From a virus, in the IMG/VR virus record IMGVR_UViG_3300017917_001008, positions 1-64,000 of that record: DNA of 64,000 bases; one strand, 5' to 3'. Of the stretch, positions 1,768-47,756 are shown one piece after another. Numbering within the stretch: position 1 is the stretch's first letter; each line of letters starts with the position of its first letter. Below the pieces are notes generated by a model. That model did no database searches, was not told where the DNA came from, and saw nothing but the letters and a program-made list of their open reading frames with translations. The translations under genes and the position numbers were made by a program.

Positions 1768-1791
1768 CCCAACCAGCCCATTTATAGGTAG

Positions 1792-2405: not shown

Positions 2406-2426
2406 CCTATTGATATCCAATAACCT

Positions 2427-3680: not shown

Positions 3681-3686
3681 AAATGT

Positions 3687-6275: not shown

Positions 6276-6292
6276 TAGTTAAAACTTAAAAT

Positions 6293-6922: not shown

Positions 6923-6939
6923 AAACCAAAACTTAAGTC

Positions 6940-7392
6940 ATGGCCGTATTACCACCTAATGAGTATCCTTGTTCTAGTTACAAGACAATCACTATTATTC
7001 TACAGGCTCCTGATGTAGCTCCTGCAAATGGGTATTCAGTGAGATGGAGAGTGGTGGGGTCCACTATTTGGAACGACTATCCTGTACAGTATGGAACTAC
7101 TATTTCCGTAATAGGTGTACCTGCTTGTTACAATATAGAAGTGGGTATTAAAGCCAATTGTGATGGCGGAGCTGGTACAGAGGTATTCACCCTGGTGCAG
7201 GGAACCAATTCCAACTGTTACGTATATACACTTAATGATAATACCATCTACTCATATACACCTTGTGGAGCTGATACTCCTGTAAGTATAGAAATGAACT
7301 CTTTAATGACCGGAGCTTCCAGACAAGTGTGTGCAAGAGAAGGTACTATTACAGGAGGTGGATTTACTCAGTCTGTTCTATGTACAGGATAA
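6940..7392 (+). CDS. FN3-like small structural protein
   Basis: GYSVRWRVVGSTIW...YNIEVGIKANC FN3-like pattern; Cys-rich tail. Confidence 0.6.
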   Translation: MAVLPPNEYPCSSYKTITIILQAPDVAPANGYSVRWRVVGSTIWNDYPVQYGTTISVIGVPACYNIEVGIKANCDGGAGTEVFTLVQGTNSNCYVYTLNDNTIYSYTPCGADTPVSIEMNSLMTGASRQVCAREGTITGGGFTQSVLCTG

Positions 7393-7402
7393 AATTTAAG
7401 AT

Positions 7403-11889: not shown

Positions 11890-12256
11890 ACCGGTGAAGG
11901 TTCAGACTACCGTCCAGCTGCCCATGTACAATTGCAAGATTGTAATGAGCGTGGTGGACAATGTACGTCAGGAAACAGTTAAGCTGTATAAGAAATATAA
12001 GATTAAAGAAGAGATGGATGATGATGAGCTGGAAGGTGTACTGGTAATGCCTAGCATAGAAGTGTATTATCTGATGGTGAGTCACCAGTTTTTGACCCAT
12101 AACACAATAGCTCATGAGATCTTCCATGCTGCTGTAAGAATTACGGAACACAGGGGGATTACAGATGAAGAAGCTCAAGCCTGGCTTGCTGGACATCTCA
12201 CCGGACAACTGTACAAATTTTTAGACAAGAAGAAGCTTACTATAAAACATGGCTGA
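11846..12256 (+). CDS. small zincin-like (HExxH) metallopeptidase-like protein
   Basis: TIAHEIFHAA followed by DEEAQAWL; start codon uncertain. Confidence 0.65.
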   Translation: MENTIQCSSQSTAGKPVKVQTTVQLPMYNCKIVMSVVDNVRQETVKLYKKYKIKEEMDDDELEGVLVMPSIEVYYLMVSHQFLTHNTIAHEIFHAAVRITEHRGITDEEAQAWLAGHLTGQLYKFLDKKKLTIKHG

Positions 12257-25386: not shown

Positions 25387-28300
25387 ATGGCAGAAGAAAT
25401 GGTAAATATGATTAGTGCTGAAGCATTAGATACTCAGGCTGCTCAAGCAGAAAGTCTTGATAATGGTTTAGATCTAGAGTTTGCTTCTACTGATGCATTA
25501 GATGCAATGGGTGCATTTAATCTGGAGCAGTTAGATAAAGAACCTGCATCTGCTGGTGACCCTCCAGGTAAACCCAAGCCTCGTACAATGCAAGACCTAA
25601 AAAGAGATTATGATAAGGATTTGCAGAACTGGAAACAGATTACCAGATATGGTATTCCCATGGCTGCTGATCAGACTCGTAATAAGTTCCAAGCAGCCAG
25701 GGTGGTAGAATTTGATGCTAGGAAGTTTAACGTAGATAGATATTTAGGTTATGGTAAAAGCACATTTGACAAGGTGGGCTTTTCTCCGTTTGTAGATAAC
25801 GAGAAGAACTTTAATCAGAACACTACTATATGGCAGGACTATGGTAGGATGATGAGCGTGTTTGGACCGCTGGTTTACCAGGGTGCTGTGTCAAGTTACC
25901 GTTCTCTTGCTGATACTTTTGGTTCTGATAGACCTGTCTTTTCTTCAGATGATGAAACTGCAAGTGAATACGCCAGGTTGAACAATATCGGTATGTCTAC
26001 AAAAGGGGGGCCTTTAGGTTTTGCAAACAACCTTACCCTTAGTATGGCCTACACAGTAGGTACAGCATTAAGTGTTGTAGCAGAAGAAGCTTTACTTTTT
26101 GGACTCACTGTAGCAACTGAGGGTGCATTTGGTGGAGCTGCTGCCGCACGTACTGCTTTTAATATTGGCAGGCTGGGTAATGCTATTAAAAGAGGATTCC
26201 AAACAGAGCATGTTGCTAACATTCTTAAAGGAAGCACCCAACTGGTTAAGTCCCTGTCTAAGGTGGGGGATGCTAAAGATTTCTACACTGCAGTGAGAAC
26301 TGGCGGTACCACTTTTGCTAAAGGTACATTCCAGTATTTAAACCCTTTTTCCCGTACAGCTGATGATATATACGATCTCTACAGAGGTAGTGCCAGCGTA
26401 CGTAACATGAGTAATTTAGCCAAGGCTAAACAAACATTTGGATCTTTCTATAGAGATGTAAGAGATAACAACTTTGCTTTATCAGAATCCAAGCTTGAGG
26501 GGGGTAGTGCTAAGATTGATGCTATTCAAAGGCTCACTGATGAGTATGAGAAAAAGAACGGTAAGGCTCCGGAAGGAGATGACTTGGCTCGTATCTATGA
26601 TCAGGCTGAAGATATAGGAAGAGGCGTCACTGCCGTAAACTTCCCGGTTATATTTTTAACCAACCGTGTAGTGCTTGACGGACTGTTTAAGTTCCGTGGT
26701 TTTAAAACTCTTGAGCAAGCTGGAGAGTTGTCAACCAAAGGTATAGGATTTAAGAAAGGCGTAGGTTTTTATGATAACCTGGCAGATGGCTGGCTGAAGA
26801 GTTCAGTAAATACACTTAAGAACCCTAAAGCATATATCGGTAAAGGTGTTAACTACTTTAGAAGGAATCTCATGGAAGGTGTGCAGGAAAACCTGCAGAA
26901 CGTCACTTCTGAAGCTGTGGCTAACTACTATGACGGAGTTTATAAAGATGCTACGCTTGGTGGATTTGACTACGCTGCTGGTCATGCTTGGGATGCCATC
27001 AAGAAAGAAATGAGTTCCGGTCAAGGACTTGAAACCTTTGCATCAGGTTTTCTAATGGGAGGGCTGATGGGAAAGGCTCAGAACCTATTCTTAAAAGACG
27101 TTCCACAGGTTTACTACTGGACTAAGGATAAGATTGCAGGTACTAACAAACTGCAGGAGTATAAGCTGAATAAACAAAGGACCCGCCAGGATGCTATTAA
27201 CGGTTTGAATGAACTGTATAAGAACCCTCTAAAGTATTTCAGCAGCCGTAATGAAAGTGCTGTGGTTCAGAAACACACATCTGATGTAATGAACCTGGCA
27301 GAGGAAAACGGAGACGCTAAGACTTTCCAGGATGCAAAAGACCTGAAGACCTTTGATAATATCTTTACAGCATTAGATAACGGTACTTATGATACACTGC
27401 TTGAACAGTTCAAGGAGCTTAAGAAATTAAGTAATGATGAGCTGGCTAACTTCTTAGGTGTTGATAAAGCAGATCCTAAGATGATGAATAAGCTGGATGA
27501 GGTGGTTACCCGTGCTGCACAGATCAAAGAGCGTTATGATGTTGTAAACGACCGGTTCAAGAATCCGTTCTCTCCTAAGAACTTTAAGTTCGGTACAGAA
27601 GAGTTTACTAAGGAAGCTATTGCTTTCAGAGCATTTGAAGCTGCTAAGAAATCAGCTGTTATTTCCCAGTACGGTTTTGACCGTGCCCTGGAAAGAATGA
27701 ACGGTTTATACCAGGATCTAAGTAGCAACCGTCCTATTAGGAAAGCTTCCGGTAGTGACATCACTGTACTTACAGATCTAAACACACTGGACAATGAGAT
27801 CAATCTCCTGGATAAGGAAGTGAAATCTTATGCCGGTGTAACAGATAAAGACCAGAAGAAGCTAGCTGAGCAGAAGAAAGAGAAGCTGGATCTTTTAATG
27901 GACTACAGGGATAAGCTACGTACCTATAGAGAAAGAATGGGTGAGAATGAGAGAGATGAGAATGGTCAGATTATTATCAGTTTTAATGACGCAGCTGAAC
28001 CTTTAAAAAATAGTTATAAAGCATATCTCCGTTACCTTGGTAAAGTTGCTGATGACTACATGTTTGATGACAAGATAGACGAGTCATTTAACAAGGTGCT
28101 TGACTACTATAGTTTGGATAGTGATGCTAAAAATTATAGTAAGGTGGTAAACAACCTGATGGATCCATTGAATCTGTACAGGCATTCACAGATGATTGCG
28201 GCTAATTTTACCAAGCTGTTCCAAAACAGGGAGATAGATGCTGAGGAAAGAATTGCCAGAAGCCAACGCTTAGTTGAGCTTAATCAGCTTCTGTTGGCTT

Positions 28301-30594
28301 TCACTGCCAACGGCATCATGCTGGATCCCCAGGAACTACAGGAGTTCGTTAGAACCGGTAAAAAGCCCACCACATTTATAGATCCTAACACCCTTCAGAA
28401 TATACCGGAGTCTTCTCCAAAGTATGCTATTGCTCAAGGACTGCTGGAAAGAGATGATGAGATTAAGGATCCTCCTAAACCAGAAGCAGCCCCTACTGCT
28501 GAAGAACCAGTTGCTCCTACTACTACCACTACTGCCCCTACAAGTGCAGAATCTGCTCCGGCTGCTACAACAACAGCTGCCCCTACAGAATTAAATCTTG
28601 AAGCTGAGCTACAAGTAAAACTGGAAGATGCTTACAACCAGTATGTAGAAGAGACTGGATCAGAGATTTCTTTTGAGGAGTTTGTAAAGACTACAAGAAG
28701 GGCCCGTAACATTATAAAGGATTTTAGAAGAGGCAAGCCAGCTGAGGCTGCACCAGCCCCTGCTACTACAGCAGCTACAGTAACACCTACCACTCCTTAT
28801 GGTACACCAACTGGTGAGCCTATTACAACAGCTACAGAAGCTGCTAAAGCTGATATAGAAAGAAGAAGACAAGAAGAATTAAATAACATACTTGGAGATG
28901 TAATAAAATTAGAAGAAGCAGATACTAAACAAAAAGCAACTCAAGCAATTGCGGATGCTACAAGAGAAGTGGGAAACAAGGCTTTAGATAAAGCTGGAAT
29001 TATTATTGGAGAAGTTCAATGGGGTAAAAACATTATTGATGTAGCTAAAAGATTAGCTTTTAAAATAAGAGAAATACAAAAACCTGCTGTAGATAGAATC
29101 AATGCTAAATATGATGCAGAACTAGCTGCTTTAGAAGGAGCTAAACCTGCAGAAGCTGCAGCTCCTGTAGCTGAGGAAGCACCTTTAGACTTGACACCGG
29201 GGTTAATTAAAGTGTTTACAGAAGAAAAGGATAAGAAGATAGGAGAGTTACTTCCTGTCTATGGGCAAGCCCTGGCTTCTAAAGATCGTACAGAAGATGA
29301 GTCTGCTGTATTGGCTGATCCTGTTAAATGGTTGGAAGAGCAGATAGAGAACGCTGAGGAGAATCTACAGAGAGATGAAGAGCGTTTAAAAACTTTAACT
29401 GAAGACGCCAAACCTGAGGTTGGAGAAGTATTTGTTACCGGAACTACATTAGGTCTAACTAATATTTACGGGACTGCTCCTAAAAACTTTATTGATAAAA
29501 GATCAACTCCTCAACGAGCTGCTTTAGAAAGGAACAAGAGTAAAGTGTTTGATGAAGAAGAAGCAGGAGGTAAGAAAGTATTCAGTATAGTGGATTGGTC
29601 AGTGGTGGACAACGTGGGTAGACCAGGATACGTTGCCACTTCTATAGCGTTTGATAAAGACTCTACTATAACATTGGATGATGTAAAGGCTGATTTAGAA
29701 GCTGCACATGCACAAACTATGTCCGGTGTAGATCAGTTTGGTAAGATAAGTGAAGTTAAGATTCAACAAGCTTTAAAAGGAGCGTCTGTTAAGATCTCTA
29801 AAAACGAGAAAGCTGATCAAGTTAAGACTCGTATGGAGTCTGCAAAAGTTAGAATACAGAAGAGTAAGGCCAACCTTAAAAAGGTTAAGGCTGTAATGGA
29901 TGAGTTTAATGATAACATATCCAGGATCACTGGTAAACCTGTTGAACAAACTCAACCCGTTGAAAGAACAGAGCCGGTTACAGAAGCCGCTCCGGTGGTA
30001 GTGTCTACAGAAAAGACAGGTACACAAAAAGCCCAGGAGCTGGTTGATTCTATCACTTCTCTTAAGGATGTTCCTGATCTGTCTAAAGCAGACAGTAAGC
30101 CAGTCACTATTGATCTGATTGAACTCATCTCTACCGGCCAGGCTAAGGCCAAAGATGTGGTGGCTATGATTGCTGCTAAGCGTAAAGAACTTCTACAGAA
30201 TATATCAACAAAAGATCTACAAAAAGGTGATATGGTTACATTTGTAGATGGTAGAAAAGGTTTTGTAAAGTCTATCAACAAGAAGACAGTTACGTTTAAG
30301 ATGGTTGGTTCCGAGAAAGGAGCTACAGAGCTTATAGACCAAAGCAAACTACCAGGTCTTATCACCAGTTTAGAATCAGGAAAAGCCCTCTCTATGGAAC
30401 CCACTCCGGAAATAGAAATTACCCCTCAGGAAGAAACAGAAGTTAAGGCGTCACAAGATGCTTTAGCGTCCTTCACAGAAAACTCTGCTGCTGTAAAAGA
30501 AGCAGGAGAAAAAGCTGCCAAAGCTGCTGGTACAGATAACCAGGAAAACCTCAACAATCTCTTTAAGAACATTGGATGTAAAACAGGAAAGTAA
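25387..30594 (+). CDS. giant ejection protein A (1735 aa) with hydrophobic segments
   Basis: Gly/Ala hydrophobic stretches (LSMAYTVGTALSVVAEEALLFGLTVATEGAFGGAAAA), coiled coils, Pro/Thr/Ala linkers, SH3/KOW-like unit near the C-terminus; directly upstream of the RNAP. Confidence 0.7.
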   Translation: MAEEMVNMISAEALDTQAAQAESLDNGLDLEFASTDALDAMGAFNLEQLDKEPASAGDPPGKPKPRTMQDLKRDYDKDLQNWKQITRYGIPMAADQTRNKFQAARVVEFDARKFNVDRYLGYGKSTFDKVGFSPFVDNEKNFNQNTTIWQDYGRMMSVFGPLVYQGAVSSYRSLADTFGSDRPVFSSDDETASEYARLNNIGMSTKGGPLGFANNLTLSMAYTVGTALSVVAEEALLFGLTVATEGAFGGAAAARTAFNIGRLGNAIKRGFQTEHVANILKGSTQLVKSLSKVGDAKDFYTAVRTGGTTFAKGTFQYLNPFSRTADDIYDLYRGSASVRNMSNLAKAKQTFGSFYRDVRDNNFALSESKLEGGSAKIDAIQRLTDEYEKKNGKAPEGDDLARIYDQAEDIGRGVTAVNFPVIFLTNRVVLDGLFKFRGFKTLEQAGELSTKGIGFKKGVGFYDNLADGWLKSSVNTLKNPKAYIGKGVNYFRRNLMEGVQENLQNVTSEAVANYYDGVYKDATLGGFDYAAGHAWDAIKKEMSSGQGLETFASGFLMGGLMGKAQNLFLKDVPQVYYWTKDKIAGTNKLQEYKLNKQRTRQDAINGLNELYKNPLKYFSSRNESAVVQKHTSDVMNLAEENGDAKTFQDAKDLKTFDNIFTALDNGTYDTLLEQFKELKKLSNDELANFLGVDKADPKMMNKLDEVVTRAAQIKERYDVVNDRFKNPFSPKNFKFGTEEFTKEAIAFRAFEAAKKSAVISQYGFDRALERMNGLYQDLSSNRPIRKASGSDITVLTDLNTLDNEINLLDKEVKSYAGVTDKDQKKLAEQKKEKLDLLMDYRDKLRTYRERMGENERDENGQIIISFNDAAEPLKNSYKAYLRYLGKVADDYMFDDKIDESFNKVLDYYSLDSDAKNYSKVVNNLMDPLNLYRHSQMIAANFTKLFQNREIDAEERIARSQRLVELNQLLLAFTANGIMLDPQELQEFVRTGKKPTTFIDPNTLQNIPESSPKYAIAQGLLERDDEIKDPPKPEAAPTAEEPVAPTTTTTAPTSAESAPAATTTAAPTELNLEAELQVKLEDAYNQYVEETGSEISFEEFVKTTRRARNIIKDFRRGKPAEAAPAPATTAATVTPTTPYGTPTGEPITTATEAAKADIERRRQEELNNILGDVIKLEEADTKQKATQAIADATREVGNKALDKAGIIIGEVQWGKNIIDVAKRLAFKIREIQKPAVDRINAKYDAELAALEGAKPAEAAAPVAEEAPLDLTPGLIKVFTEEKDKKIGELLPVYGQALASKDRTEDESAVLADPVKWLEEQIENAEENLQRDEERLKTLTEDAKPEVGEVFVTGTTLGLTNIYGTAPKNFIDKRSTPQRAALERNKSKVFDEEEAGGKKVFSIVDWSVVDNVGRPGYVATSIAFDKDSTITLDDVKADLEAAHAQTMSGVDQFGKISEVKIQQALKGASVKISKNEKADQVKTRMESAKVRIQKSKANLKKVKAVMDEFNDNISRITGKPVEQTQPVERTEPVTEAAPVVVSTEKTGTQKAQELVDSITSLKDVPDLSKADSKPVTIDLIELISTGQAKAKDVVAMIAAKRKELLQNISTKDLQKGDMVTFVDGRKGFVKSINKKTVTFKMVGSEKGATELIDQSKLPGLITSLESGKALSMEPTPEIEITPQEETEVKASQDALASFTENSAAVKEAGEKAAKAAGTDNQENLNNLFKNIGCKTGK

Positions 30595-33500
30595 TGGCTT
30601 GTAGATTAACAGAAGATCAAATATCAGCTTTATTTGGAGCTATTCACGGAGAAGTGATTGCTTCTAAGAACCGTGATGATAAGTTTAATGCGGCACAGGC
30701 TATTCGTGCTTTATATCAAAGGCTGCTGGATGCTGGAGCTGAGCAGGTAAATGCTATGGACTATGTACAACATATACCAAGCATGTTGCAGCTTAGCTAT
30801 GCTATGTTTGCAGACTCTAAGGCTCACATGAGAGCCAGTGGTGTGAACCTGTCTGAACTGGATCAGCTAGATGCAGACTTCACTGCAGATATTAAAAACG
30901 TGGCTAAGTTCCTGGGTGTAGACCAAGGCACAGCTGATGTTGTACAAGAGATCATTGAAGAGTCTAATCCCTCTACAGGGGTTATTCCCACAGATAACTA
31001 TACACAGATAGAAGAGGGTGATATTGCTAAGAAGAAACCCTACTTTGATTCAGAGATAAGCTTTGTAGCAGCTCCTGAAACAGCTCTTGCTGTATTCAAC
31101 CAGGAAGCCCAGGACTATAATGGTGTACAGGCTAAGCAGAACATACAAGACCCGGATCCTGTTAAGAAGGTGTATTACACCGTAGTGAGAAAGCTGAATG
31201 ACCTGATGACCGGCAGCAACCGCCAGACAGCAGATAAAGTGAAGCTTGGTGATGTAGAGGGTGTGTTCTTAAGACTAGTACCCGCTTCTATGATTGCCAT
31301 GGAAGATCTGCAGGAAGCTGACAGACTTTACTATTCTACAGATGATGATCCCCGTATTCCTTTTTCCAAGACCTCTAAAACAAAGATGGAACTTAGAGAG
31401 AAAGGAGATGATGTATACTTAGTCTATACAGACAAAGATGGTAACATACTTTATTTCAATGAAGAGGGTACACCTGTAGGAAAGGAAAATGGTGGTATGG
31501 TGGCTTACGGTAAGCTCCGTAGACCATACACTCCTAAGACTACCAATGAGGCTAAGGGTCAGGTGGCCGGTCGTAAAATGGTAGGAAGAGTACAGACTCC
31601 TCAAGACCTGGTGAGAAAAGGACTGGGTACACTGGAAGAAGTTACTAAAGAGCGTGATGAGGAAATAGAGATCCTTGAGAAGTCTCGTGAGTTTGTTTCC
31701 AAGAATCGTGACGAGGTGGTGTTATTCTCTGTAACCCCTGGTAGAAATGGTTATGTAACAGAAGACTTTTCCAAGCCTAACCCAATCAGTTCTATAGATC
31801 TCACAGATGGATTTAAACCTTATTTAAACAGCCAGGAAACTGGTGTATTGATTAAGGGCGGGGTGTATTTTAATGTCCCTGGCTACGAGTTCCCATTACT
31901 GATTCGTAGACCAAAGTTTGGCAATGTACCAAACCTGTCAGGCAACCTGGCAGATATTGTGTTTGACTCAGATCTTTCTAACAAAGAAAAGATAGATGTA
32001 TTAAGACAGTTTACCTACTCTGGAGACACTAAGATATTCCAGGGTAATGACGGCAAGCTTTATGTAAAGCAGATGGATCAAACTATGGAAGTCACTGCAG
32101 ATAATAAGCAGGCTTTCATTGATAATCTAAACGGCCAAACTGTTAACATCAATAAGGACCTGATGCATAGAACCTTTAACATGCCAGTGAACCTGGATGG
32201 TAAAGTGACCCTGCAGCAGGAGCGTTATAATAACTTCCTGGCTAATAACTTCTATACCTTCCTGGCTAAGAATGACCAGAATAAGATTGTCAGCCTGAAT
32301 GCGTATAACGTAATATTTCCTACAGAGGCAGCACAGGACAAGATCTTTGGTAAAGCAAAAGCAGCATCTAACGAGCAAACCTCTTCTTTAGAGCAAGCTA
32401 CACCCACTGATGTTACCAAGGATGAGTTTAAAGAATTACTAGACCGTACAGACTTCAGTTTAAAGAAGTCTACATTACTAAGCAGTAAGGCCACTGACGA
32501 ACAGATTGCCGCTGCAGAGAAATGGTATAACAGCTCTCCGCTTTCTAAAGTGGTACCATTCCAGGTGATGTTTAACATTGTAAACTCAAATGCATTAGCA
32601 GAGTTTACCACTGCAGGTATCACCCTGTGGAGCGGATCTAACTTTACAGATCTCTATCACGAGGGATGGCATGCTTTCACCCAGATGTTCCTGACCAAGG
32701 ATCAGAAGAAAGAGTTGTACAATGAAGCCCGTAAACTCACCGGTACCTTCACTACAGTGAGCGGTGCTAAGGTGAAGTTCAGTGCAGCTACAGATATGCA
32801 GCTGGAAGAATTCATGGCTGAAGACTTTAGAAAGTATGTACTGTCTGACCGTAAGAATATAATCAATGGCCGTCCGGTACGTAATACTATTTTCAGGAAG
32901 ATCTTTAATTTCCTGAAGGTTGTATTCAGTAGCTATTCGTTAAAAGATATTGCTGCTGATCGTACAGCAGTGGCTAATATCCAGAGCCTGTATGACCAGC
33001 TGTTCATTGGAGAGATCCATGACTACAAGCCTTCCTTAAGAAACGTACAGTTTGGAATATTAAACAAGGGCGTAGAGGCTTTGGATGTCAAATCTAAAGA
33101 CACGCTCACTTACCAGGATTCTATGACCCTGGTAGAAACTATTGACTCTTTAATAGCCTCCACTATGGTAGGTTATGGTAGGAGTGTAGCTGGTATATTT
33201 ACTAACCCAGAACTCCTGGGCCCATTATACAAGAGAGTTAACACCAAGCTTGCTGAGCTTAGAGAAACCCTGGTTGCAGATCCAGAAAAAGCTAACAGCG
33301 TAAAGCTGATAGACTTTGCCCTGACTAACTGGGGTGATTTTAGTAAGGTGGCTAAGGGTGAAGAATCCACTGGTGTACTGGCATTCCATAAAAAGCGTAG
33401 TGCATATTTTACGTTTGATGATAAGATGGCCGAGATGGACGCTTATGATCAGAGTGTAAATGAAGATGCTGAAGAAGTTAAAGATGCAGATAATAATCTG

Positions 33501-39500: not shown

Positions 39501-40175
39501 AGTAATAAGAACCAGGTGTTGAATCAGTATTACACCCAGTTTAAGAAAAAGTGGGATAATGAAAACTCAAGCTCTCGTTTGAAGTTCCGTAACTATCTCA
39601 CTACGTTTGATATCAAGGGAACCAAGTCTGTTTCTCTGAATAATCCTTCAGAGATTATAGACGGAGCTGAGCTGAATAAAAATGCCCAGGGTCTATATGT
39701 CTATCCAAAAATAGCTGGGTCTGCCAGTGCAAAAAATATTGTTAAGAATCATAATAACATTATATTTGCCTACCCCAATATAAGTGATAGTAAGGCTATT
39801 AAGACCACGTTTGATGCTGCTAGTAATTCGGTGAGTTTCCCAATCACTACAGACGGTAAGACTCCACTTTCAGACGAGAACTTTGAAGAGAATGTTAGAT
39901 TGATAGATGATGCCATCACTTCTATAGAAACACAGTTTGAGCTTGGTAACGAGGTGGCTTTCCCTGAAGAAGGTTTCAACATGCTAGATGGGAAAGATCT
40001 ATTGCTTAATGCTCCCCGCACTAAGAGTTACATGGCCCAGGAGCTGTACAAACGCCTTGCTTACATCATGCCAGGTATGCACAATGAGAAAGCTATACGC
40101 TCTCAGGTTCAGGCAAACCAGGAAATTACAGATGAGATGGTAGAGGAGTTCATGAAAAAATGCTTTGGAAACTAA
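30594..40175 (+). CDS. virion-packaged DNA-dependent RNA polymerase (crAss/phi14:2 gp66-like) with zincin domain
   Basis: Catalytic GSDFDIDKL (37062-37076) preceded by RIPVQGLNSM; DAQGW and KFSLVPL segments; HEGWH...EEFMAEDF zincin motif at about 32658. Confidence 0.9.
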   Translation: MACRLTEDQISALFGAIHGEVIASKNRDDKFNAAQAIRALYQRLLDAGAEQVNAMDYVQHIPSMLQLSYAMFADSKAHMRASGVNLSELDQLDADFTADIKNVAKFLGVDQGTADVVQEIIEESNPSTGVIPTDNYTQIEEGDIAKKKPYFDSEISFVAAPETALAVFNQEAQDYNGVQAKQNIQDPDPVKKVYYTVVRKLNDLMTGSNRQTADKVKLGDVEGVFLRLVPASMIAMEDLQEADRLYYSTDDDPRIPFSKTSKTKMELREKGDDVYLVYTDKDGNILYFNEEGTPVGKENGGMVAYGKLRRPYTPKTTNEAKGQVAGRKMVGRVQTPQDLVRKGLGTLEEVTKERDEEIEILEKSREFVSKNRDEVVLFSVTPGRNGYVTEDFSKPNPISSIDLTDGFKPYLNSQETGVLIKGGVYFNVPGYEFPLLIRRPKFGNVPNLSGNLADIVFDSDLSNKEKIDVLRQFTYSGDTKIFQGNDGKLYVKQMDQTMEVTADNKQAFIDNLNGQTVNINKDLMHRTFNMPVNLDGKVTLQQERYNNFLANNFYTFLAKNDQNKIVSLNAYNVIFPTEAAQDKIFGKAKAASNEQTSSLEQATPTDVTKDEFKELLDRTDFSLKKSTLLSSKATDEQIAAAEKWYNSSPLSKVVPFQVMFNIVNSNALAEFTTAGITLWSGSNFTDLYHEGWHAFTQMFLTKDQKKELYNEARKLTGTFTTVSGAKVKFSAATDMQLEEFMAEDFRKYVLSDRKNIINGRPVRNTIFRKIFNFLKVVFSSYSLKDIAADRTAVANIQSLYDQLFIGEIHDYKPSLRNVQFGILNKGVEALDVKSKDTLTYQDSMTLVETIDSLIASTMVGYGRSVAGIFTNPELLGPLYKRVNTKLAELRETLVADPEKANSVKLIDFALTNWGDFSKVAKGEESTGVLAFHKKRSAYFTFDDKMAEMDAYDQSVNEDAEEVKDADNNLAKSEQQLREEFGSNPFERKGNEHSVRELASNEVVYLIKSLPQVDKNGKVVTNALGVPKLVDFNRTWGIVINTVAGSNTTSQMYAKLLDAATRFPELRALVERLGNPLDHTETKDWPFMKMWISFFRDFSVYRIPIKEGRLVDGPGGFKFEFTEVDPQFKQVHRAFQAQFESLGSSPYITKTPTGNKLNIEKILKDFPYSSIFAKDKVIIDEDKAMEFLKAIGFYLTDNREIRKAIRDNYEAVAYIHGLPYMKNPGGLLRLADKKVDVFNPIDALWKIGSENTNVQKILTIEAKHSGKFSNNAVTNVNGDIVYDLSLNNTITRLLNDLNDPSKDYTMTQEQHLQHLNFQRNPFAKYSIWMKSMFSIPTGKLVDLSNENKRISQDVKFGGGFVSMNLVNLDGVKSVLARDNAGQLVQSGIKTTSLDPASKFIFDLHTMLLTGTMELPRHASKSSAYGVSVSKVDTSYNENAKHLYISPGHFGKNGKGTEYSVELLLPKIAAEMERIAMVNQGLVPSIPGFNERGKDFTMFDDILSDTTKEELKRLADTEDSLSVIQDPAIKQKITADVRNYLNQLFKENMELYKSLDFMSDDLLLNSRSGKTDIKALIAKDTLEVVGEDRTDYLKEVAVKAFTVNSLIHNMEAISVLYGDLAMYNHLKEEYHKRNASIGSTGRIFASDGATNKFIENLGRGYARSIGARDKGFDGTLDTAIFKDNEVPSVYYDEYLEALTKKYGADKAKKILKPYKKMNEGDAQGWITFDSYRILSILEGAWSEKQNELYNKIIRNEQVDPAEITEFFPTKKFQYAGPLKTEKLHIQAFHKFSLVPLIPSLVKGTNMQTLHDNLVKQGKDYALFESGSKLATITANGKPDSLYENDDYNTRVVKPWNEGDPAYTSNVVFIQYLKDQVDIQSTWKNKTVFSTQLRKLIINDVFKQGLGIGEFDGLVKEFEGLLDDLQEYKKKELLQQAGWTENESGELSGSTRELLEFVMREMERLELPEHDVDFVRDSLNDGTFTDLSFSLNAEKIEKMLNNIVVKRLVKQKMNGEQLVQLSGAGFESAGSRFTNATEEEIKKYRGTNNLPTYRPGAGKDGKTTAMKVKIAIKGDYYKLLNLKHNDGKKIGTRERLNEMIKDDKWLDKGDNRKMITMVGVRIPVQGLNSMEFMEIYEFLPEEAGSVIIPPAEIVAKSGSDFDIDKLTIFQPHIGIRINRNTTKSKLKELAKKYPDLDFSLDNVNTILDASENDFSVYMPTEQEMKVYKVLVQEASDELPTYIKGKGMKSTENQIIEKIRTILEHPDNFDALIRPNDTDLVKGVADELAELNIQGYDPFAVKTGNTRTSIKGGKESKVISPTRALEPRYNLYKHESNNIGKKTLGIGAVDNAYSSIFKRVGARLEKNYTHYKKEDGRFVYDKSGNIVKQIRPINIRMKHNTIKENGTEYISLSDIETVTMDKVSDLIGQLMNGWVDIEKDAWIFNINGNSIAGPVLLFLLETGVDFKTAAYFVSQPLVVQYVKEMYMSDSPFYPAVNPGAETEKGLKRHKIRQKFFEDLKIAPLKPTKFFGPVLSNDILYKAINDYNANKEYTVESLREVIKNKDVKSKDAIAGLLHFMELEDLGKQLTNIKLTVNVDTAPSKSLFAANQRIDKIEDLEYVDSVPKSVINKILYDSPIRSFLVQKFQLGILKPLMKLRGDSQINNFLLDVMKGANYPSAFNTPEKFVAAFHNDLPLYLLQNHLKGLDINSLTEYKGMAVKEAMPVKNVQLRQGAFVKDGVMYIDRDQIAEDFNTKAFAGEGYEKQGLAKLDPQTFNMGDNSQNLQEYVHFVLEREYLRSVIPVGDVTREVYERKIATRALERTFNFFHMLKAPGESIADKFLEIKTKYPKLSEDFLIMTELGYNNDAAKTDDDGNVKEVKNKKMRTLKLKSQRLDTDFANVLHENLLRLADPMTIKVEDPNANREISQFFTRMIVAEYLRAGITRSGENLAKILPVNTLRQLMAEPLQEFSKKSNKNQVLNQYYTQFKKKWDNENSSSRLKFRNYLTTFDIKGTKSVSLNNPSEIIDGAELNKNAQGLYVYPKIAGSASAKNIVKNHNNIIFAYPNISDSKAIKTTFDAASNSVSFPITTDGKTPLSDENFEENVRLIDDAITSIETQFELGNEVAFPEEGFNMLDGKDLLLNAPRTKSYMAQELYKRLAYIMPGMHNEKAIRSQVQANQEITDEMVEEFMKKCFGN

Positions 40176-40190
40176 TTATAATCATACCCT

Positions 40191-43100
40191 ATGTTAGCGT
40201 GCCCTAATAAAAACACTAAAGATTGGCAAGACCTTGTTGACCAGTTAGGAGAGAAGGAAGCTTTCAGAGCCTACCTCACTATTGGTGACGGAACTATTCC
40301 TACAGCCCAGCAATACGTACAGTATAGCAGGCAGGCTAGTGAGGAAAAAGGAGAGATTGGTGTTAACAAGCAACAGCTGTTGATGCTTCTTGGCCCCACC
40401 ATGTATAACAAGCCGCTTGCACAGGTGGCTGTAAAAGAGTTGTTACAGAATTCATTTGATGCTATTAAAGCCATGCACAACATGCGTGGTAAAACTGTAA
40501 CTACTACACCTGCTGTAGACAAGTCTGCTCTGATCCGTGAGTTTAACCAGGTGCAGAGTCAGATTAAAGCTGAATCAGCTAAGGTTACTTTTGACAGTGA
40601 AGGAGATGTGCTTACAGGTGATCCTTTTGTAGTGAGCAAGCTGGTAGACAGACGTGCTGCTTTACAGGAGCAGATTGCCAACTTTGATCAGAACCAGAAA
40701 GCTAACGCTACTACTAAGACTGGTTACGAAGGGCCGCTGGGTAATATTAAGTTTACCATTAACTATGACGACCGTACCATCTCTATACAGGATGATGGTA
40801 TTGGTATGACGCCTGATATTGTCAAGAAGGCGTTTCTCTCTATTGGTGGTACCAATAAAGAAGGACTATCTACAGGTGAGCGTTCCGGTGGATTTGGTCT
40901 GGCCAAAGTGCAGTTCTTATTGGGTAGTGAGTACGTAGAAGTGTCTACAGTGAGAGATGGTACAAGAACCTCTATTAAGGCTACCAACCTAGAGCTTTAT
41001 AATGATGACTTTACTATCCGTACAGAGCCTACCAACGAACCTAACGGTACGTTTGTAAAGGTGAAGATACCAGAAACCTACACTACACCAGAAGGAACTG
41101 TTCGTACCATTGACTTCCCTGGATCTTGGTCATCTGATCCAATAGAGCGTTTTGATATTTTAAACCAGCCCCTGATTGGTAATCTAAATGTCTCTGCAGA
41201 TGTAGTGAAGAACGGTAGGACAACTAATAAGGTGTTGCCAATAGGTAAGAACATCTCTAAGGAATTATTACCTCCATTACTTTCTAATGTAAAGTTTGCC
41301 TGGGGTGAAGCTGAAGTGTACGTAGGAGAGAACAAAACAGAGTCTCCTAGACATAGAATACTTTCATCTGGATTATACCAGTTTAGTAAACGTATAGAGA
41401 TTGCAAACTGGGAACCCATTCCTTATGATATTGTAATCAATATTAAACCGTCTGTAAGTTCTACAGCGGAGCAGTATCCATTTAACAACCAGCGTGAGGA
41501 TTTCAAGAATACGGTTTCTAAAGATGTAGATAGCCTATACGCCTATTTAAGAAAGTACGCCAGGGGAGAAGCTGAGAAAGATTTAGTGGATGTATTCCAG
41601 AATATCAAGTCTTTACCTAAAACTGACCCTAACAAGATACTCACTCCTGAAGAGAGAGCTAAACTCTATGAAGAAGTAGAAAACACCATAGCTGAATCTA
41701 AACGCTTACGTGAGCAGTATGGCAGTCAGCTTAACCAGCCACGTCAGACTACAAGACTGGTGATCAGCCAGGGATCTGTAACGGATGAAGAGACTGGTGC
41801 ACAAGTGGAAGTGGAGAAAGAGAAAAGCTATGAGTCTACATTTAAGGCTGATAAAGAGATTGAGTTAGGTAAGTCTGTAGACACATCTGCATTTAAAGAG
41901 AACGAACCCCAGTTTCATAATAACACTAACGTAGACTATTTGTCTATGCCCGGAGCTATAGAGTTCTTTAGTGACTTTGGTACTGTAGTGTATGAGATGG
42001 TAAGGTTTGCCGGTAGGGAGTTAGGCCACCGTTACAGCAAGCTTACAGGACAAGAAGGTAAGTTTTTTGCAGGTGTATCCATTGATAAAACCTACGGTGG
42101 CGTGCATGTCCGTAAAGTGATAGATGCCATCTTCATTAACCCGCTTTCTTTTGACATCTCCAGTGTAGAAGAAGCTGCAGGTTTGATGACCCACATCATT
42201 ATACATGAGATTAACCACACTACAGAGTCAGGTGAAGGAGCCAACTTTACCACTGCTCTGGCTAAGCTATATGGTAAGATATATGAGACCGGTAAGTATG
42301 GCTACTTTGAGGGGTTGGTTAGATCTGTATATCGTAAACATTTTGATACCTTTGTAAAACTAAAATCAGAATATGACAAGTCCACTACAAGAAATCTTGC
42401 AGCTTCGTTTGAAGGAAACGAACTCAATAGAGGCAGTGAAGGGAACCTTCAAGGGAATGCTTCAGCTGTACGAGCAGGAGAACAGACCTCTGGCAGAGAT
42501 CAACGAGATCAGGAAGATCTTAGCGGATCTAGACAAGAAGACCGCACAGGAGACGTTATAATCAGTCAGCTTAACAATCCACAGACAAGTGTACCTACAC
42601 TTCCTCCTGTGGAAGCCCAAAGAGCTGAGATAGGTCAAAACATAGTGCGTGCCATTGCAGACACGCTTGCTGCTAACTTAGGTGTTTCCTACACCTTAGT
42701 CACTCCTGAAGAAGCAGCTCAGCTAACAGCTAATTCCCGTAATCCATGGAAAGGTGAGAAAGCTTTCTTCTACAATGGCCAGGTGTATTTCCTGGACGGA
42801 GGCTTTACAACAGACTCTGTACTACACGAGTTTTCACATCCACTGGTAGCAGCTATTGCTGTACAGAATCCTACGTTATTTAAGAATCTTTATGAGCAGC
42901 TGGAATCCACACCAGAAGGTAAGGCTGTAATAGCTGAAGTGGAAGCTTTGTATCCGGAGTTTAAACCTACAGATACCAAGTTCCGTGAAGAGGCTTTAGT
43001 AAGAGCTATGACCGCTAAAGCTATCAACCAGATCAAGGGACAGAAACCTTCTACAGGGTTTAATGATGTGATCAACAAGATGTTGTTTGCCATTAAGCAA

Positions 43101-46100
43101 ATGTTCCGTAAGCTGTTTGGTTCTTCTATAAAGATTGAAAAACTTTCTGAGAATACTTCTTTAGAGCAGCTTGCTGAGATGCTCCGTGGTGAGAAGTTTG
43201 ATATTTCTACAGAGGTGGTTACCCAGGAAGACTACGCCCAGTATGTTCGTGACATTTCTAACTTTATGTCTGAGCTGGATGCTGTAGAATATTCTGGTAT
43301 TTCTACATCTGTAAAGCGTTTTTATGATGTAGTGACCAACCACATCAGACGTATTAAAGATAACAAGAACTACAGTGAGGCCCGTAAGTTCCTAGTAGAT
43401 GAGACCGGTCGTGGTCAGTTACAGGAACTGAAGTCAACCCTTTCTAACTCTGAGATAGACGAGAAGCTTAGTGAGATCTTTGACGAGGTGACCCTGCAGG
43501 CTAAAACCATGCAGAGTTTTGTACACTCAACGCTCCGTTTACAGAAACTGAGTGATAGCATTTTAAAGCATGTACGTGAGCTGGCTAAGCAGGGAGACTC
43601 TAAAGAGGTGATCGGTAACATCTTCTACTATGACCTTCTTGTACGTAACTGGAATAAGTATATTAACGAAACCATTGATCGTCTCTCAGATGCCGGCCTA
43701 AGTCCAAACACAGAGTTTGGCAGAGTGATTGCCGGTATACAGAATACAGTGGCTCAGACTGAAAGGATGATAGATAAGATCTATGCAGACAAGGTGGATG
43801 ACGTCATCTTTGATACACTGCAACCTCTTGCAGAAAGCATTGATAACTACTTTGGTGACTGGATAGCTGGTCTTGAAAAGAAGAACGCTTCTGCACAGAA
43901 GATAGCTGATGTTCAGAAGAAGTGGGATGAAATGAAACTTACTAAGCAGAAGATCAAAGATCTGATCAGTGGTAAGCTGGGTGATACAAATATGTACTCT
44001 GCCTTCCTGGAAGCATACACCAACTCTCCAGATCCTGTAGTGGGTGGTTTTGCCATGTTCTTGAAGAACGCCTACAATGATGTAGACGCCCAGGCTCAGC
44101 GTAACATGAATGATTTTGTACGTGACCTGGAGCCATTGTTAATAGCTGCCGGTTACAGCCGTATGGATTATGCCGGATTAATGGAAAAGCTTGTCACTGT
44201 AGAGAAAGTTCCATTTATAGATGAGAAAGGAAACTTTGCCACTAAAGAGGTGTTTTCTTTTAAGGACAAGTTTAATGATTATAATACAGAGGCTTCCCAG
44301 TTAAGGTTTGAATATGACCAGGCTGTATCTGAAGGAGACCAGGCCCTGGCAGACCAGAAGCTCCGTGACCTGCGTAAACTACGTAGGGATTATTTCCACC
44401 AGGAATATGTACCTGAATACTACGAGCGTGAGAAGATCTATGATTCAGAAATGGGTCGTGAAGCTTACAGACGTAAGCAGATGCTTCTTAATGAGATTAA
44501 AGAACTTGACGCCCAGAGTTATGATGATGACGCCCTGGATTACATTGCTGATCAGAAGAAGATCCTGTGGAGAGAATACTCTCAGCTGGCTTCTTTAACA
44601 GATCTGAATGGTGATCCTAAGACAGGTCGTGAACTGGAACTGGCTAAGATTGAAAAGGAATACCGCAAGGCTTCCCGTGAGTTCTTTGAATGGGTTCCTA
44701 TACAGGGTTTATTTGAGTCTAACTTAAGACGTTTTGAACAGAGTCTGGTGGATGAGGGTATTGATATCACCTCAGATGAGTTTAAAGAAAAACGTAATAA
44801 GTGGATTAAGAACAATACCGTTATTGCTTACACCCCAGAATTCTACGAGGAGCGTAACCAGGTGCTGGAAGATCTTAGAGATCTGATGAGCGGCCTGAGT
44901 GAAGACGTACGTAAATCTATTGACTCTACAGAGGAAATGGAAGCTATGCTTGATATAGCCACCGGCTTCCGTGACCAGGATGGTCAGGTGATCGGTACAG
45001 ATATTTCCGAGAAGAGTAAGAACAAGGTGAGAGAATACCAGAAAGCCATACTTGCCAAGCGTGATTCTATGGCTGGCTTTAGTGGTCTTACCAGGGATGA
45101 AATGGATGAGCTCACTGAGATCTTCCAGAAGATGACGGCTAAGATAAAGATCACACAGGCAGAGCGTGACCGTGTAGACGAACTGATGGAGAAGAAAAAC
45201 TCCATGGGTGTAGATAAGTTTACCAAGGCCGAGATGCAATCTCTATATGCTCAGCTGGCAGAACTTCAGAGTAAGGAAGCCACTGATTACTATGTAGACA
45301 TTGTAAATAACTATCTGTCTAAGATAGGTGAGCCGTTGATTGATAACGACACAGCTATTAATCTTTTAGATCCTGTAATGTATGTGGAGCTGTTTAAGAA
45401 GTCTCCAGAGTTTGAGAAATGGTTTAAAGAAAACCATATACAGAAAGAGGTGTTTGACAGAGCATCCGGGGATACTAAAATAGTTTACGAGCGTCTGTTC
45501 ATCTGGAACCGCACCCGTCCTAACAACCCTGATCACTACGAGAAGATTAAACTCTCTGATGGTGAAGAGATTTTAGGTAAGCCTAATCTGTCTTATTTCT
45601 ACCGTTCTGTAAAGAAAGAGTATCGTACCAAGCGTGAGGTGGGTAAGACCATAGACAACCGTGGTAACTGGTTACCTAAGTCTTTAGAAGACGGAGCTGT
45701 GGATGATAAATACTACAACCAGGATTATGAAAAACTCCGTAGAGAAGACCCTGCAGCGTTTGCTGTACTGGAGAAGATGAAGGAATATCACCTGAAGTTC
45801 CAGGAAGGTTTTGCCCGTGAGAGTAAGTTATACCTGCAGATCCCACGCTACCGTAAACCTTCTTTAGAATCTCTTAAAGATGGTAAGTTCAAGAACAAGT
45901 GGCATGAGTGGACCACTCGTGTAAAACAGTTCTTTGCTAAAGCTCCGGATGATGTACAGGATGGATTAAACTTCAAGCCTGAACAGCTCATCTATACAGA
46001 CATGTTTGACGAGGAGATCAATAAGGTTCCTATCACCGGTCTCTATGCATTAGATACCGATCAGGTGAGTATGAACATTGCAGATAACATGTTGCGTTAT

Positions 46101-47756
46101 ATGCATTCAGGTTTAAAACAAAAGAAGCTGATTGAGCTTAACCCTATGGCCCAGGCTCTGAAGAAAGCGGTGGGCAGTCCGGATAGTGCCATCAAGGACA
46201 TGACTAAGATTAACAAGTGGCAGTATGTAAACACCGGTGTTAAATCCTACCTGTCTAAGAAAGGAGAGAACGTACGAGCTAAGGCTATTGCCAATCTATA
46301 CGAGCGGGAGTTTGAAGGAAAGACCCAAGCAGGTTGGTTAGCCAATGCTGCTGGTGTACAGAAATTTGTACATGGATTATTAAAGCTTTCCAGCTTTGGA
46401 TTATTCTCCTTTAACGTACTTCCTTCTGCCATTAAGAACAGGCAGTCAGCTATTATCCAGTTGCAGATTGAAGCCAGTGGTGGTAGATTCCTAAACTGGA
46501 ACAGCTACCTGCGTGGTAAACCACGTGCTGTGTCTATGCTTGGTGCATACTCAGCTCAGCTGTATAAAACTGGTAACCGCTCTTTAGATGTGCAGCTCCT
46601 GCAGATCTTTGATCCTACCCAGGAGATATTAAACACTACGTTTGGAGACGGATCCGCCACCGATATGGGTGGTCAGTTTGGTAGATCTGTAGCCAGTGAT
46701 GCTGCAAGTCTTGGATTCTTTATGGCACCACGTAAGTGGCTGGAAATTGAGTCTGCAATAGAACTCTTTAGTGGTATGATGCACCACGTTAAAGTGGAGC
46801 AGATCATCAATGGAGAGAAGAATGAGATCCCTTATATAAACGCCTTTGAAATAGTTAACGGCCAGATAGAACTTAAAGCCGGTATTGATAAAGAGTGGGC
46901 ACCTGGCGGTAAGAAGTTCAATGAGTTTAAGAACAGGGTACATGAACTGGGTAACCGTCTGAACGGTACCTATGCTAAGATGGACCAGCCTGAGGCTCAG
47001 CGTTATTTTGTATTCAGAATAGCTGCATTCTTAAAACGCTTCTTTACATCCATGTTGATGAACCGTGTAGGAGCAACCCGTCCTAGTGCAGCTCTGGGTA
47101 CAGTGAGCACCGGATACTACCGTTCTGTTTTACAGGTGGCCAGGGACTTCCTCAGATATGGTATCAAAAACTACCAGTGGTTAAGTGAAGAACAGAAGAT
47201 CAACCTTCTAAAGTTTGCATCAGATATGGCTCACCAGATGGCGTTGTTATTCATCCTGAACGTAATGTTTGGATATGACGAGTCTGATGAAGACCGTTTT
47301 GAAAAGATGAGAAAACGCAGTGGAGCCTTGGGTGATGATGACTTCAACCTTTCCGGTTGGTTAACAAACCACGGACTGGTAGCTACACTGGGTACACTAA
47401 CCGAGGTGGAAACTTTTGGATCCTGGAGTCCTGTAGTGGTGGGAGCGGATGGTGATCTGGATATGGCAATCCTGGGTCGTAACTGGAAGCAGTTGAAGAA
47501 CACTTCTAAGATGATCATGGATCCTAGAACACTGTACGGAACTACTATAGAGAAGCAACTTAACTTCTTAAACCACTTAAGCCAGTATTTGGATGAGGAT
47601 CCAGCAGGATTTTACAAGAGAGATGTTGGACCGTATTGGTTCCAGAAGGAGGAGTCTCCTAAGTTTATCAATGATGCGGCATCCATCTTAGGCTTTACCG
47701 GATCACAGATAGATCCAGTAAAAGCCTTAAAAGGGATGGAGTTTGGTCGTAAGTAA
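40191..47756 (+). CDS. giant ejection protein C (2521 aa) with GHKL ATPase and two HExxH motifs
   Basis: VKELLQNSFDA (N box), IQDDGIGM (G1), GGFGLAK (G2), NGT (G3); HEINH at 42204; HEFSH...EEALV at 42825; long helical remainder. Confidence 0.8.
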   Translation: MLACPNKNTKDWQDLVDQLGEKEAFRAYLTIGDGTIPTAQQYVQYSRQASEEKGEIGVNKQQLLMLLGPTMYNKPLAQVAVKELLQNSFDAIKAMHNMRGKTVTTTPAVDKSALIREFNQVQSQIKAESAKVTFDSEGDVLTGDPFVVSKLVDRRAALQEQIANFDQNQKANATTKTGYEGPLGNIKFTINYDDRTISIQDDGIGMTPDIVKKAFLSIGGTNKEGLSTGERSGGFGLAKVQFLLGSEYVEVSTVRDGTRTSIKATNLELYNDDFTIRTEPTNEPNGTFVKVKIPETYTTPEGTVRTIDFPGSWSSDPIERFDILNQPLIGNLNVSADVVKNGRTTNKVLPIGKNISKELLPPLLSNVKFAWGEAEVYVGENKTESPRHRILSSGLYQFSKRIEIANWEPIPYDIVINIKPSVSSTAEQYPFNNQREDFKNTVSKDVDSLYAYLRKYARGEAEKDLVDVFQNIKSLPKTDPNKILTPEERAKLYEEVENTIAESKRLREQYGSQLNQPRQTTRLVISQGSVTDEETGAQVEVEKEKSYESTFKADKEIELGKSVDTSAFKENEPQFHNNTNVDYLSMPGAIEFFSDFGTVVYEMVRFAGRELGHRYSKLTGQEGKFFAGVSIDKTYGGVHVRKVIDAIFINPLSFDISSVEEAAGLMTHIIIHEINHTTESGEGANFTTALAKLYGKIYETGKYGYFEGLVRSVYRKHFDTFVKLKSEYDKSTTRNLAASFEGNELNRGSEGNLQGNASAVRAGEQTSGRDQRDQEDLSGSRQEDRTGDVIISQLNNPQTSVPTLPPVEAQRAEIGQNIVRAIADTLAANLGVSYTLVTPEEAAQLTANSRNPWKGEKAFFYNGQVYFLDGGFTTDSVLHEFSHPLVAAIAVQNPTLFKNLYEQLESTPEGKAVIAEVEALYPEFKPTDTKFREEALVRAMTAKAINQIKGQKPSTGFNDVINKMLFAIKQMFRKLFGSSIKIEKLSENTSLEQLAEMLRGEKFDISTEVVTQEDYAQYVRDISNFMSELDAVEYSGISTSVKRFYDVVTNHIRRIKDNKNYSEARKFLVDETGRGQLQELKSTLSNSEIDEKLSEIFDEVTLQAKTMQSFVHSTLRLQKLSDSILKHVRELAKQGDSKEVIGNIFYYDLLVRNWNKYINETIDRLSDAGLSPNTEFGRVIAGIQNTVAQTERMIDKIYADKVDDVIFDTLQPLAESIDNYFGDWIAGLEKKNASAQKIADVQKKWDEMKLTKQKIKDLISGKLGDTNMYSAFLEAYTNSPDPVVGGFAMFLKNAYNDVDAQAQRNMNDFVRDLEPLLIAAGYSRMDYAGLMEKLVTVEKVPFIDEKGNFATKEVFSFKDKFNDYNTEASQLRFEYDQAVSEGDQALADQKLRDLRKLRRDYFHQEYVPEYYEREKIYDSEMGREAYRRKQMLLNEIKELDAQSYDDDALDYIADQKKILWREYSQLASLTDLNGDPKTGRELELAKIEKEYRKASREFFEWVPIQGLFESNLRRFEQSLVDEGIDITSDEFKEKRNKWIKNNTVIAYTPEFYEERNQVLEDLRDLMSGLSEDVRKSIDSTEEMEAMLDIATGFRDQDGQVIGTDISEKSKNKVREYQKAILAKRDSMAGFSGLTRDEMDELTEIFQKMTAKIKITQAERDRVDELMEKKNSMGVDKFTKAEMQSLYAQLAELQSKEATDYYVDIVNNYLSKIGEPLIDNDTAINLLDPVMYVELFKKSPEFEKWFKENHIQKEVFDRASGDTKIVYERLFIWNRTRPNNPDHYEKIKLSDGEEILGKPNLSYFYRSVKKEYRTKREVGKTIDNRGNWLPKSLEDGAVDDKYYNQDYEKLRREDPAAFAVLEKMKEYHLKFQEGFARESKLYLQIPRYRKPSLESLKDGKFKNKWHEWTTRVKQFFAKAPDDVQDGLNFKPEQLIYTDMFDEEINKVPITGLYALDTDQVSMNIADNMLRYMHSGLKQKKLIELNPMAQALKKAVGSPDSAIKDMTKINKWQYVNTGVKSYLSKKGENVRAKAIANLYEREFEGKTQAGWLANAAGVQKFVHGLLKLSSFGLFSFNVLPSAIKNRQSAIIQLQIEASGGRFLNWNSYLRGKPRAVSMLGAYSAQLYKTGNRSLDVQLLQIFDPTQEILNTTFGDGSATDMGGQFGRSVASDAASLGFFMAPRKWLEIESAIELFSGMMHHVKVEQIINGEKNEIPYINAFEIVNGQIELKAGIDKEWAPGGKKFNEFKNRVHELGNRLNGTYAKMDQPEAQRYFVFRIAAFLKRFFTSMLMNRVGATRPSAALGTVSTGYYRSVLQVARDFLRYGIKNYQWLSEEQKINLLKFASDMAHQMALLFILNVMFGYDESDEDRFEKMRKRSGALGDDDFNLSGWLTNHGLVATLGTLTEVETFGSWSPVVVGADGDLDMAILGRNWKQLKNTSKMIMDPRTLYGTTIEKQLNFLNHLSQYLDEDPAGFYKRDVGPYWFQKEESPKFINDAASILGFTGSQIDPVKALKGMEFGRK

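Follow-up and report, generated by a model that had tools for sequence, protein, structure and literature searches.

The window analysed here, 64,000 nucleotides of the virus record IMGVR_UViG_3300017917_001008 in IMG/VR (whole record 75,210 bases, estimated to be ~60% complete), raises the question of why three giant neighbouring proteins, almost devoid of cysteine (Cys), carry the few Cys that they have at the ends that face one another. The window comes from a distant crAss-like phage. The proteins are called A, R and C in gene order, R being the virion RNA polymerase (RNAP), and they contain four Cys in 7449 residues, all at facing ends. This pattern is conserved in relatives and follows the breaks between the polypeptides when genes are fused or split. 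It probably reflects two disulfide bonds, one between A and R and one between R and C, that would join the three proteins into a single chain in the virion.

Cysteine positions in the window and in its relatives

The three genes and their Cys codons are the following.
25387..30594, plus strand: protein A, 1735 amino acids (aa), 191.5 kDa; first link of the proposed chain, at the gene position occupied by g067 in phi14:2 and gp47 in crAss001
30577..30579, plus strand: codon TGT of A Cys1731 (...NIGCKTGK, stop), five residues from the C-terminus and the sole Cys of A
30594..40175, plus strand: protein R, virion RNAP of the two-barrel type, 3193 aa, 360.7 kDa; exactly two Cys, at 3 and 3190
30600..30602, plus strand: codon TGT of R Cys3 (MACRL...)
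40161..40163, plus strand: codon TGC of R Cys3190 (...KKCFGN, stop)
40191..47756, plus strand: protein C, 2521 aa, 286.6 kDa; last link of the proposed chain, with its sole Cys at 4
40200..40202, plus strand: codon TGC of C Cys4 (MLACPN...)

The initial annotation of this DNA had listed these four Cys with their residues and nucleotides, and a count by script agrees with it exactly; it had also placed no Cys at the outer ends (N-terminus of A, C-terminus of C), and there is none. The remaining open reading frames (ORFs) of the window average 1.56% Cys, a rate that predicts ~116 in 7449 aa. If four Cys are placed uniformly at random, the probability that each of the four 10-residue facing zones receives one is P = 7.8e-11. 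Read in their two alternative frames, these genes contain many TGY codons (26–179 per gene), so selection acts on the protein, and base composition is not the cause of the scarcity of Cys. A lipobox reading of the sequence MLAC at the start of C was rejected on established knowledge, there being no signal peptide.

With the RNAP core as query, two IMG/VR scans recovered 86 loci at 36–78% identity, and the 76 distinct loci among them supplied the 507,500 residues in which Cys were counted. The facing ends hold 276 of the 299 Cys of this set. Among the last 10 residues of A there is a Cys in 64/64 relatives; R has an N-terminal Cys, at position 3–5, in 68/68 and a C-terminal Cys in 73/73; and the N-terminus of C has one at position 3–6 in 71/71. 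The outer ends have none (0/9 for the N-terminus of A, 0/54 for the C-terminus of C). Overall, the Cys stands at position 3–6 from an N-terminus and 1–10 residues, mostly 1–3, from a C-terminus, and both TGT and TGC serve as its codon. The question posed in the initial annotation, whether the terminal Cys are conserved in homologues or randomly placed, is therefore answered in favour of conservation.

The surrounding sequence is far more variable. Alignments of the terminal 250–450 residues have mean column identities of 12–17%; in alignments A2 (C-terminus of R), A3 (N-terminus of C) and A5 (C-terminus of A; last 250 aa, 60 relatives, 17%) Cys is the sole invariant column, and in alignment A4 (N-terminus of R) it is nearly invariant. 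Eight loci that seemed to break the rule (L029, L031, L034, L035, L040, L042, L067 and L077) have upstream TTG or ATG starts, and the true start puts the Cys at 3–5; two others (L038 and L050) are mis-assigned ORFs.

The same signature is found in characterized crAss-like phages. In phi14:2, g067 has Cys1797, its last residue, g066 has Cys3 and Cys2179, and g065 has Cys3. The crAss001 proteins are gp47 with Cys2339, gp50 with Cys5 and Cys2404 (plus one internal Cys) and gp49 with Cys5. Since gp47 of crAss001 has its C-terminal Cys even though its gene is on the other strand and distant from the start of gp50, gene adjacency is not the cause of the terminal Cys. The IAS virus obeys the rule, which is also present in Intestiviridae and Suoliviridae. 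In the IAS virus (L011, NC_049978.1) the RNAP is annotated as two overlapping coding sequences, gp055 ('molybdenum carrier') and gp056, at 16900–16912, with N bases near the junction; this looks like a sequence-quality artefact and not a real gene boundary.

Fused, split and displaced gene boundaries

Relatives in which the cargo genes are joined or divided differently show what the Cys follow. R and C are fused in the six Intestiviridae fusions examined (Carjivirus communis, crAss002, cr3_1, cr11_1, cr110_1 and cr8_1), as confirmed in the first four by BLAST homology to gp50 and gp49. All six retain the Cys at the C-terminus of A and at the N-terminus of R, are without a C-terminal Cys, and have no Cys pair in the estimated R/C junction zone. 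Fusions of A with R, found in the Suoliviridae cr118_1, cr50_1 and cr52_1, are the mirror image: the N-terminal Cys is gone, the pair facing C is retained, and here too no Cys pair lies at the junction.

Three loci have an extra 'link' protein with exactly two Cys, both terminal, and two of the three are splits of R verified by homology. The link of L086, between A and R, has 602 aa with Cys only at 3 and 601, and is homologous to residues 1–540 of R in relatives (E 1e-21). That of L032, between R and C, has 242 aa with Cys only at 3 and at the last residue, and shows homology to the final 180 aa of other R proteins (E 2e-16). The third, from L077, has 757 aa and two terminal Cys only; no homologue of it was found in the clade, and it is not verified as a split.

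Divisions of the reading frame that do not break the protein have no such pair. In cr108_1 (L097, NC_055878.1), a group I intron at 19790–20108 (RF00028, 80 bits, E 1e-20) interrupts the RNAP gene in the DFDxD motif, at ...AKAGSD / (L)YDIDK..., and the halves are annotated as separate hypothetical proteins, gp054 and gp053. Neither side of this false split has a Cys. In L050 the A gene is likewise divided with no Cys at the split; the cause is a frameshift, L050 and L034 being otherwise 100% identical across this gene. The frameshifted stretch, at 2700–2830 of L050, is ~70 codons long, and the frameshift is probably an assembly or sequencing indel.

The break between A and R has also moved. 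R of the window contains a module that lies on the other side of the boundary elsewhere.
32535..33023, plus strand: HExxH (zincin-like) module in R, residues ~648–810, with HEGWH at 689 (hhalign probability 95%, E 2.7e-8)
In crAss001 and five Intestiviridae this module belongs to the A-type protein, 185–262 residues from its C-terminal end. Domain content has moved across the gene boundary, and the position of the break is not homologous between these lineages. Taken together, fusions without a pair, splits with a pair, false splits without one and the displaced HExxH module indicate that the Cys pair tracks the break in the polypeptide and not a homologous position in the sequence. The prediction of the initial annotation, that new junctions should gain Cys pairs and fused ones lose them, is borne out by L086 and L032 on the one hand and by the Intestiviridae and Suoliviridae fusions on the other. 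Comparison of the loci lends good support to a single pairing, of the C-terminus of A with the N-terminus of R and of the C-terminus of R with the N-terminus of C, as the only topology that would fit all fusions and splits without leaving an orphan Cys.

Other proteins of the Intestiviridae cargo region have a sole or near-terminal Cys: gp47 of Carjivirus communis (L009; 857 aa, Cys856) and gp30 of crAss002 (L010; 557 aa, Cys550). Small gp48-like proteins of this region have Cys 6–12 residues from the C-terminus, and gp90 of cr8_1 (L098) has Cys5. These proteins may be extra links or may take part in a separate pairing.

Disulfide pairing and its alternatives

A disulfide between facing ends has been described in the cyanopodophage A4 (A-4L), where the C-terminal helix of gp27 enters a cleft in gp26 and a Cys1715–Cys5 bond, seen by cryo-electron microscopy of the virion, holds it there (PNAS 2025, PMC12002296). 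In the A-4L genome, gp27 (1717 aa) has its single Cys at 1715 and gp26 (1114 aa) has its single Cys at 5. A4 is thus like the window in having large ejection proteins, encoded by neighbouring genes, with the sole Cys at facing C- and N-terminal ends. It is unlike the window in having two such proteins and no RNAP, with five copies of each in a symmetric ring on the portal, and its authors treat the bond as a stabilizing detail, neither as a rule nor as a chain (PMC12002296). In the one case that has a structure, the same sequence signature is a real disulfide, and the facing Cys of A, R and C may be read in the same way by analogy.

We consider it likely that an A-R-C disulfide chain exists in virions. 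The facing termini would dock, and bonds between A Cys1731 and R Cys3 and between R Cys3190 and C Cys4 would form within the particle, shielded from the reducing cytoplasm, after packaging or lysis. The product would be an unbranched thread of covalently linked proteins, A-S-S-R-S-S-C, 7449 residues long and 839 kDa in mass, which would cross the narrow tail channel as a single, partly unfolded, quasi-linear chain, each protein pulling the next. Because the Cys are 1–10 residues from the chain ends, the joints would be only two strands wide over a few residues, and the thread could therefore pass the channel; non-covalent contacts would not survive the unfolding. The reducing cytoplasm would then cut the links and free the three proteins. 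The rest of each protein would be kept free of Cys so that wrong bonds cannot form. In crAss001, the cargo must partly unfold to pass constrictions of < 50 Å, and the virions hold many structural disulfides (PMC10172136).

Predicted structures place two of the Cys ahead of the first helix. In an AlphaFold2 (AF2) model of the N-terminus of R (predicted local distance difference test, pLDDT, 82), residues 1–3 are flexible and the first helix begins at residue 7, so that Cys3 lies in the leader. The model of the N-terminus of C has a pLDDT of 53 overall and of 82–92 over residues 1–40, which form a 40-residue helical head, with Cys4 in the coil that precedes the helices. Searches for folds similar to the R model gave E > 0.3 in Foldseek and Z <= 5.8 in VIA wide, all matches of the latter being generic helical bundles, and profile searches of the PDB with alignments A3 and A4 found nothing.

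The interpretation given in the initial annotation is thus supported in part. Its pairing has good support, as the sole topology that fits the fusions and splits and as one with an analogue in A4. The functions that it attached to the chain, namely a fixed 1:1:1 stoichiometry, a fixed order of ejection and release by reduction in the cytoplasm, are consequences that such a chain might have.

The bonds might form and yet do nothing more than stabilize the cargo complex packed in the capsid, as the A4 bond is said to stabilize the docked helix in the pre-ejectosome (PMC12002296), with no part in threading or in the order of ejection. Many disulfides of crAss001 are purely structural (PMC10172136), which fits such a role. 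A stabilizing bond could, however, sit anywhere in an interface, and this explanation accounts neither for Cys that are always 1–10 residues from the very end nor for the ability of a gene fusion, which is a linear covalent join, to replace the pair; we regard it as unlikely. The partner of the terminal Cys might instead be a metal ion held jointly by termini, or a protein of the capsid, portal or scaffold, leaving A, R and C unjoined. Thiolates bind Zn or Fe well, and the capsid interior of crAss phage is unresolved (PMC10172136). A metal site would nevertheless have two thiols per joint and no more, since no conserved His, Asp or second Cys is nearby (the Cys is the one invariant column in alignments A2, A3 and A5), and anchorage to a third protein would not need a C-terminal and an N-terminal Cys at every break. 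It would also leave the loss of both Cys at fusions and the Cys-free outer ends (0/9 and 0/54) unexplained. Metal binding or anchorage is therefore improbable.

The Cys could in principle be retained without any bond, because their codons serve nucleic acids or translation at gene boundaries or because the thiol is needed only in its free form. Signals at the junctions are conceivable, as the genes abut or overlap (the start of R overlaps the stop of A in TAATG). Against this, TGT and TGC are both in use, the Cys stands anywhere from 1 to 10 codons away from the stop or start, and gp47 of crAss001 keeps its C-terminal Cys at a remote site on the opposite strand; we give this explanation very little weight. 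The Cys count of the window alone cannot separate the proposed topology from another, in which R would be a ring closed by its own Cys3 and Cys3190, and A Cys1731 would pair with C Cys4. The relatives do separate them: R+C fusions lose the C-terminal Cys of R and the N-terminal Cys of C together, and A+R fusions do the reverse, which would leave orphans under any other pairing; the L086 and L032 links each add one N-terminal and one C-terminal Cys; and the A4 bond is head-to-tail (PMC12002296). The ring arrangement is extremely unlikely.

Several points weigh against the A-R-C chain. In crAss-like phages the disulfide is deduced from sequences; such a bond has been seen in a virion for phage A4 only. 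A4 is moreover best taken as an analogue only, as hidden Markov models (HMMs) of the four termini gave no credible homology with gp26–gp29 of A-4L (best 9 bits), and the PDB profile and fold searches likewise detected no homology between gp26 or gp27 and the crAss proteins. One exception to the rule is known: in cr273_1 (L092, NC_055904.1), the Cys nearest to the C-terminus of the 5794-aa fused gp35 lies 50 residues before it, although gp36 has Cys3 (MFCPN). This genome has dozens of in-frame stops (a recoded stop codon), and the annotated end of gp35 may be wrong. Avoidance of Cys is not absolute, as several gut lineages have 5–15 internal Cys in these proteins. Virions assemble in the reducing cytoplasm and many crAss-like phages live in anoxic guts, so that both the occurrence of oxidation and its timing are uncertain. 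Finally, the maps of crAss001 do not resolve gp47, gp49 or gp50, nor the interior of the capsid (PMC10172136).

A search for redox enzymes found no thioredoxin, glutaredoxin or Erv-type oxidase in the 75-kb record (~60% complete); the Erv search was also empty in control genomes and is uninformative. A search for relatives of A-4L gp27 found A-4L itself only. A match of the C-terminal HMM of A to crAss001 gp47 appeared with filters off and vanished with default filters, and is not relied on.

Genomic setting and significance

Four further features of the window define its setting.
12249..16823, plus strand: large virion structural protein, upstream of the cargo genes (phrog_37948, E 9e-71; phrog_15100, E 2e-48)
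22111..23598, plus strand: U1, 495 aa, Cys-free; gene position of the crAss001 cargo protein gp45
23613/23616..25385, plus strand: U2, 590 aa, Cys-free; gene position of the crAss001 cargo protein gp46
37062..37076, plus strand: catalytic DFDID motif of the RNAP (R residues 2157–2161)

The gene order is the structural protein, U1, U2, A, R and C, followed by a minus-strand replication module that includes a DNA polymerase. As the gene at 12249–16823 encodes a large virion structural protein, the genes of the chain come after the tail module, as in crAss001. R matches the solved virion RNAP of phi14:2 (gp66, PDB 6VR4) with E 3.8e-28, and in tblastn it matches 97 Crassvirales records ('putative RNA polymerase') with ~21–26% identity. 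Over residues 1888–2373, C has homology to crAss001 gp49 (E 3e-8, small database). The DFDID motif, the matches to 6VR4 and gp49 and the gene layout together identify a distant crAss-like phage, with A, R and C as its RNAP-associated cargo proteins. Counterparts of A, R and C were found by mass spectrometry in the virions of phi14:2 and crAss001 (for crAss001, PMC10172136), and by analogy the three proteins are best explained as cargo carried in the capsid and delivered into the host cell. The crAss001 study recorded data sets for both reduced and non-reduced samples.

Beyond these matches the proteins are poorly covered by family databases. None of U1, U2, A, R and C received a family from PHROGs; in Pfam, U1, U2 and A matched nothing, R had one sub-threshold match to DUF7831, and C had only weak HATPase_c matches. 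These mark a GHKL/HATPase_c-like stretch at residues 181–295 (40731–41075), with PF13589 at E 2.3e-6 just above the cut-off and PF02518 below it; an ATPase domain within an ejected protein would be unusual. C also carries HExxH motifs at 672 and 879. Its N-terminal 450 aa are only 21% identical to those of L002, although the R core of L002 is 68% identical to that of the window. No near-identical phage DNA was found in the phage collection.

U1 and U2 contain no Cys at all and, having no terminal Cys, fall outside the proposed chain. The initial annotation had remarked on their lack of Cys beside Cys-rich tail proteins, and the counts concur: the tail-module ORFs at 70–8206 contain 2.8–5.3% Cys. 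One of the tail-module proteins (6293–6922) starts with Cys at 3, 6, 9 and 12 (CxxCxxCxxC). A Cys-rich tail module is consistent with the many structural disulfides reported in the tail of crAss001.

The window shares with phi14:2 and crAss001 a homologous RNAP core and the terminal-Cys signature, and with phi14:2 also the order of its cargo genes (g067-g066-g065). Its clade differs from both in an extra N-terminal region of R of ~1000 aa, which includes the HExxH module. Comparison with the Schitoviridae (N4, DEV) is instructive in another way. These phages also pack a giant RNAP in the capsid, eject it through a narrow tail, probably unfolded, and avoid Cys strongly; their ejection proteins are without Cys altogether (PMC11445570). 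Their virion RNAP (vRNAP), however, is a single chain of 3,400–3,500 aa, composed of an N-terminal domain (NTD), the RNAP and a C-terminal domain (CTD), with essentially no Cys, whereas the window has three chains with Cys at every break; the polymerase folds differ as well, being T7-like in N4 and two-barrel in the window. With its four conserved terminal Cys and three chains, the cargo of the window does not fit the Schitoviridae type of a single chain lacking Cys completely. A 2026 paper on N4 describes vRNAP as a single 'beads-on-a-string' chain, thought to unfold on ejection, and does not settle the correspondence between the three crAss proteins and NTD, core and CTD.

Full-text searches of the literature found no paper on these Cys in crAss-like phages. 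The structural atlas of crAss001 does not discuss them (PMC10172136), the preprint version of the phi14:2 study does not contain the word 'cysteine', and neither does a Crassvirales review. The statement of the initial annotation that no such system had been described must accordingly be narrowed to crAss-like phages, as the head-to-tail disulfide between gp27 and gp26 of A4 was published in 2025 (PMC12002296). What would be new relative to A4 is a chain of several links, built around a virion RNAP, conserved across an order and obeying a rule for fusions and splits.

We put forward a wider proposal, to which we give somewhat less than even credence. Wherever the injected cargo polypeptide of Crassvirales is broken, a terminal disulfide would mend it, so that two to four or more separately encoded proteins would form one thread of ~0.8 MDa, the topological equivalent of the single-chain vRNAP of N4. 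Nothing but the reducing cytoplasm would cut the thread, and reduction would thereby signal arrival and switch on the polymerase. Fusion, fission and shifted breaks would be interchangeable because the disulfide restores the chain, and the same solution would have arisen on its own in phage A4.

Any crAss-like phage of this kind has to package ~0.8 MDa of protein and deliver it into the host, and the polymerase with which infection begins is part of that load. If a terminal-disulfide chain exists, it would explain why their cargo genes can fuse, split and shift their boundaries freely, why Cys is avoided elsewhere in the cargo proteins and how partly unfolded proteins stay together through a narrow channel. 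The pattern of terminal Cys would also provide a simple sequence rule for spotting ejected cargo chains in uncultured phages, and the chain itself would be a concrete answer to the packing and injection problem that can be tested with existing virion preparations.

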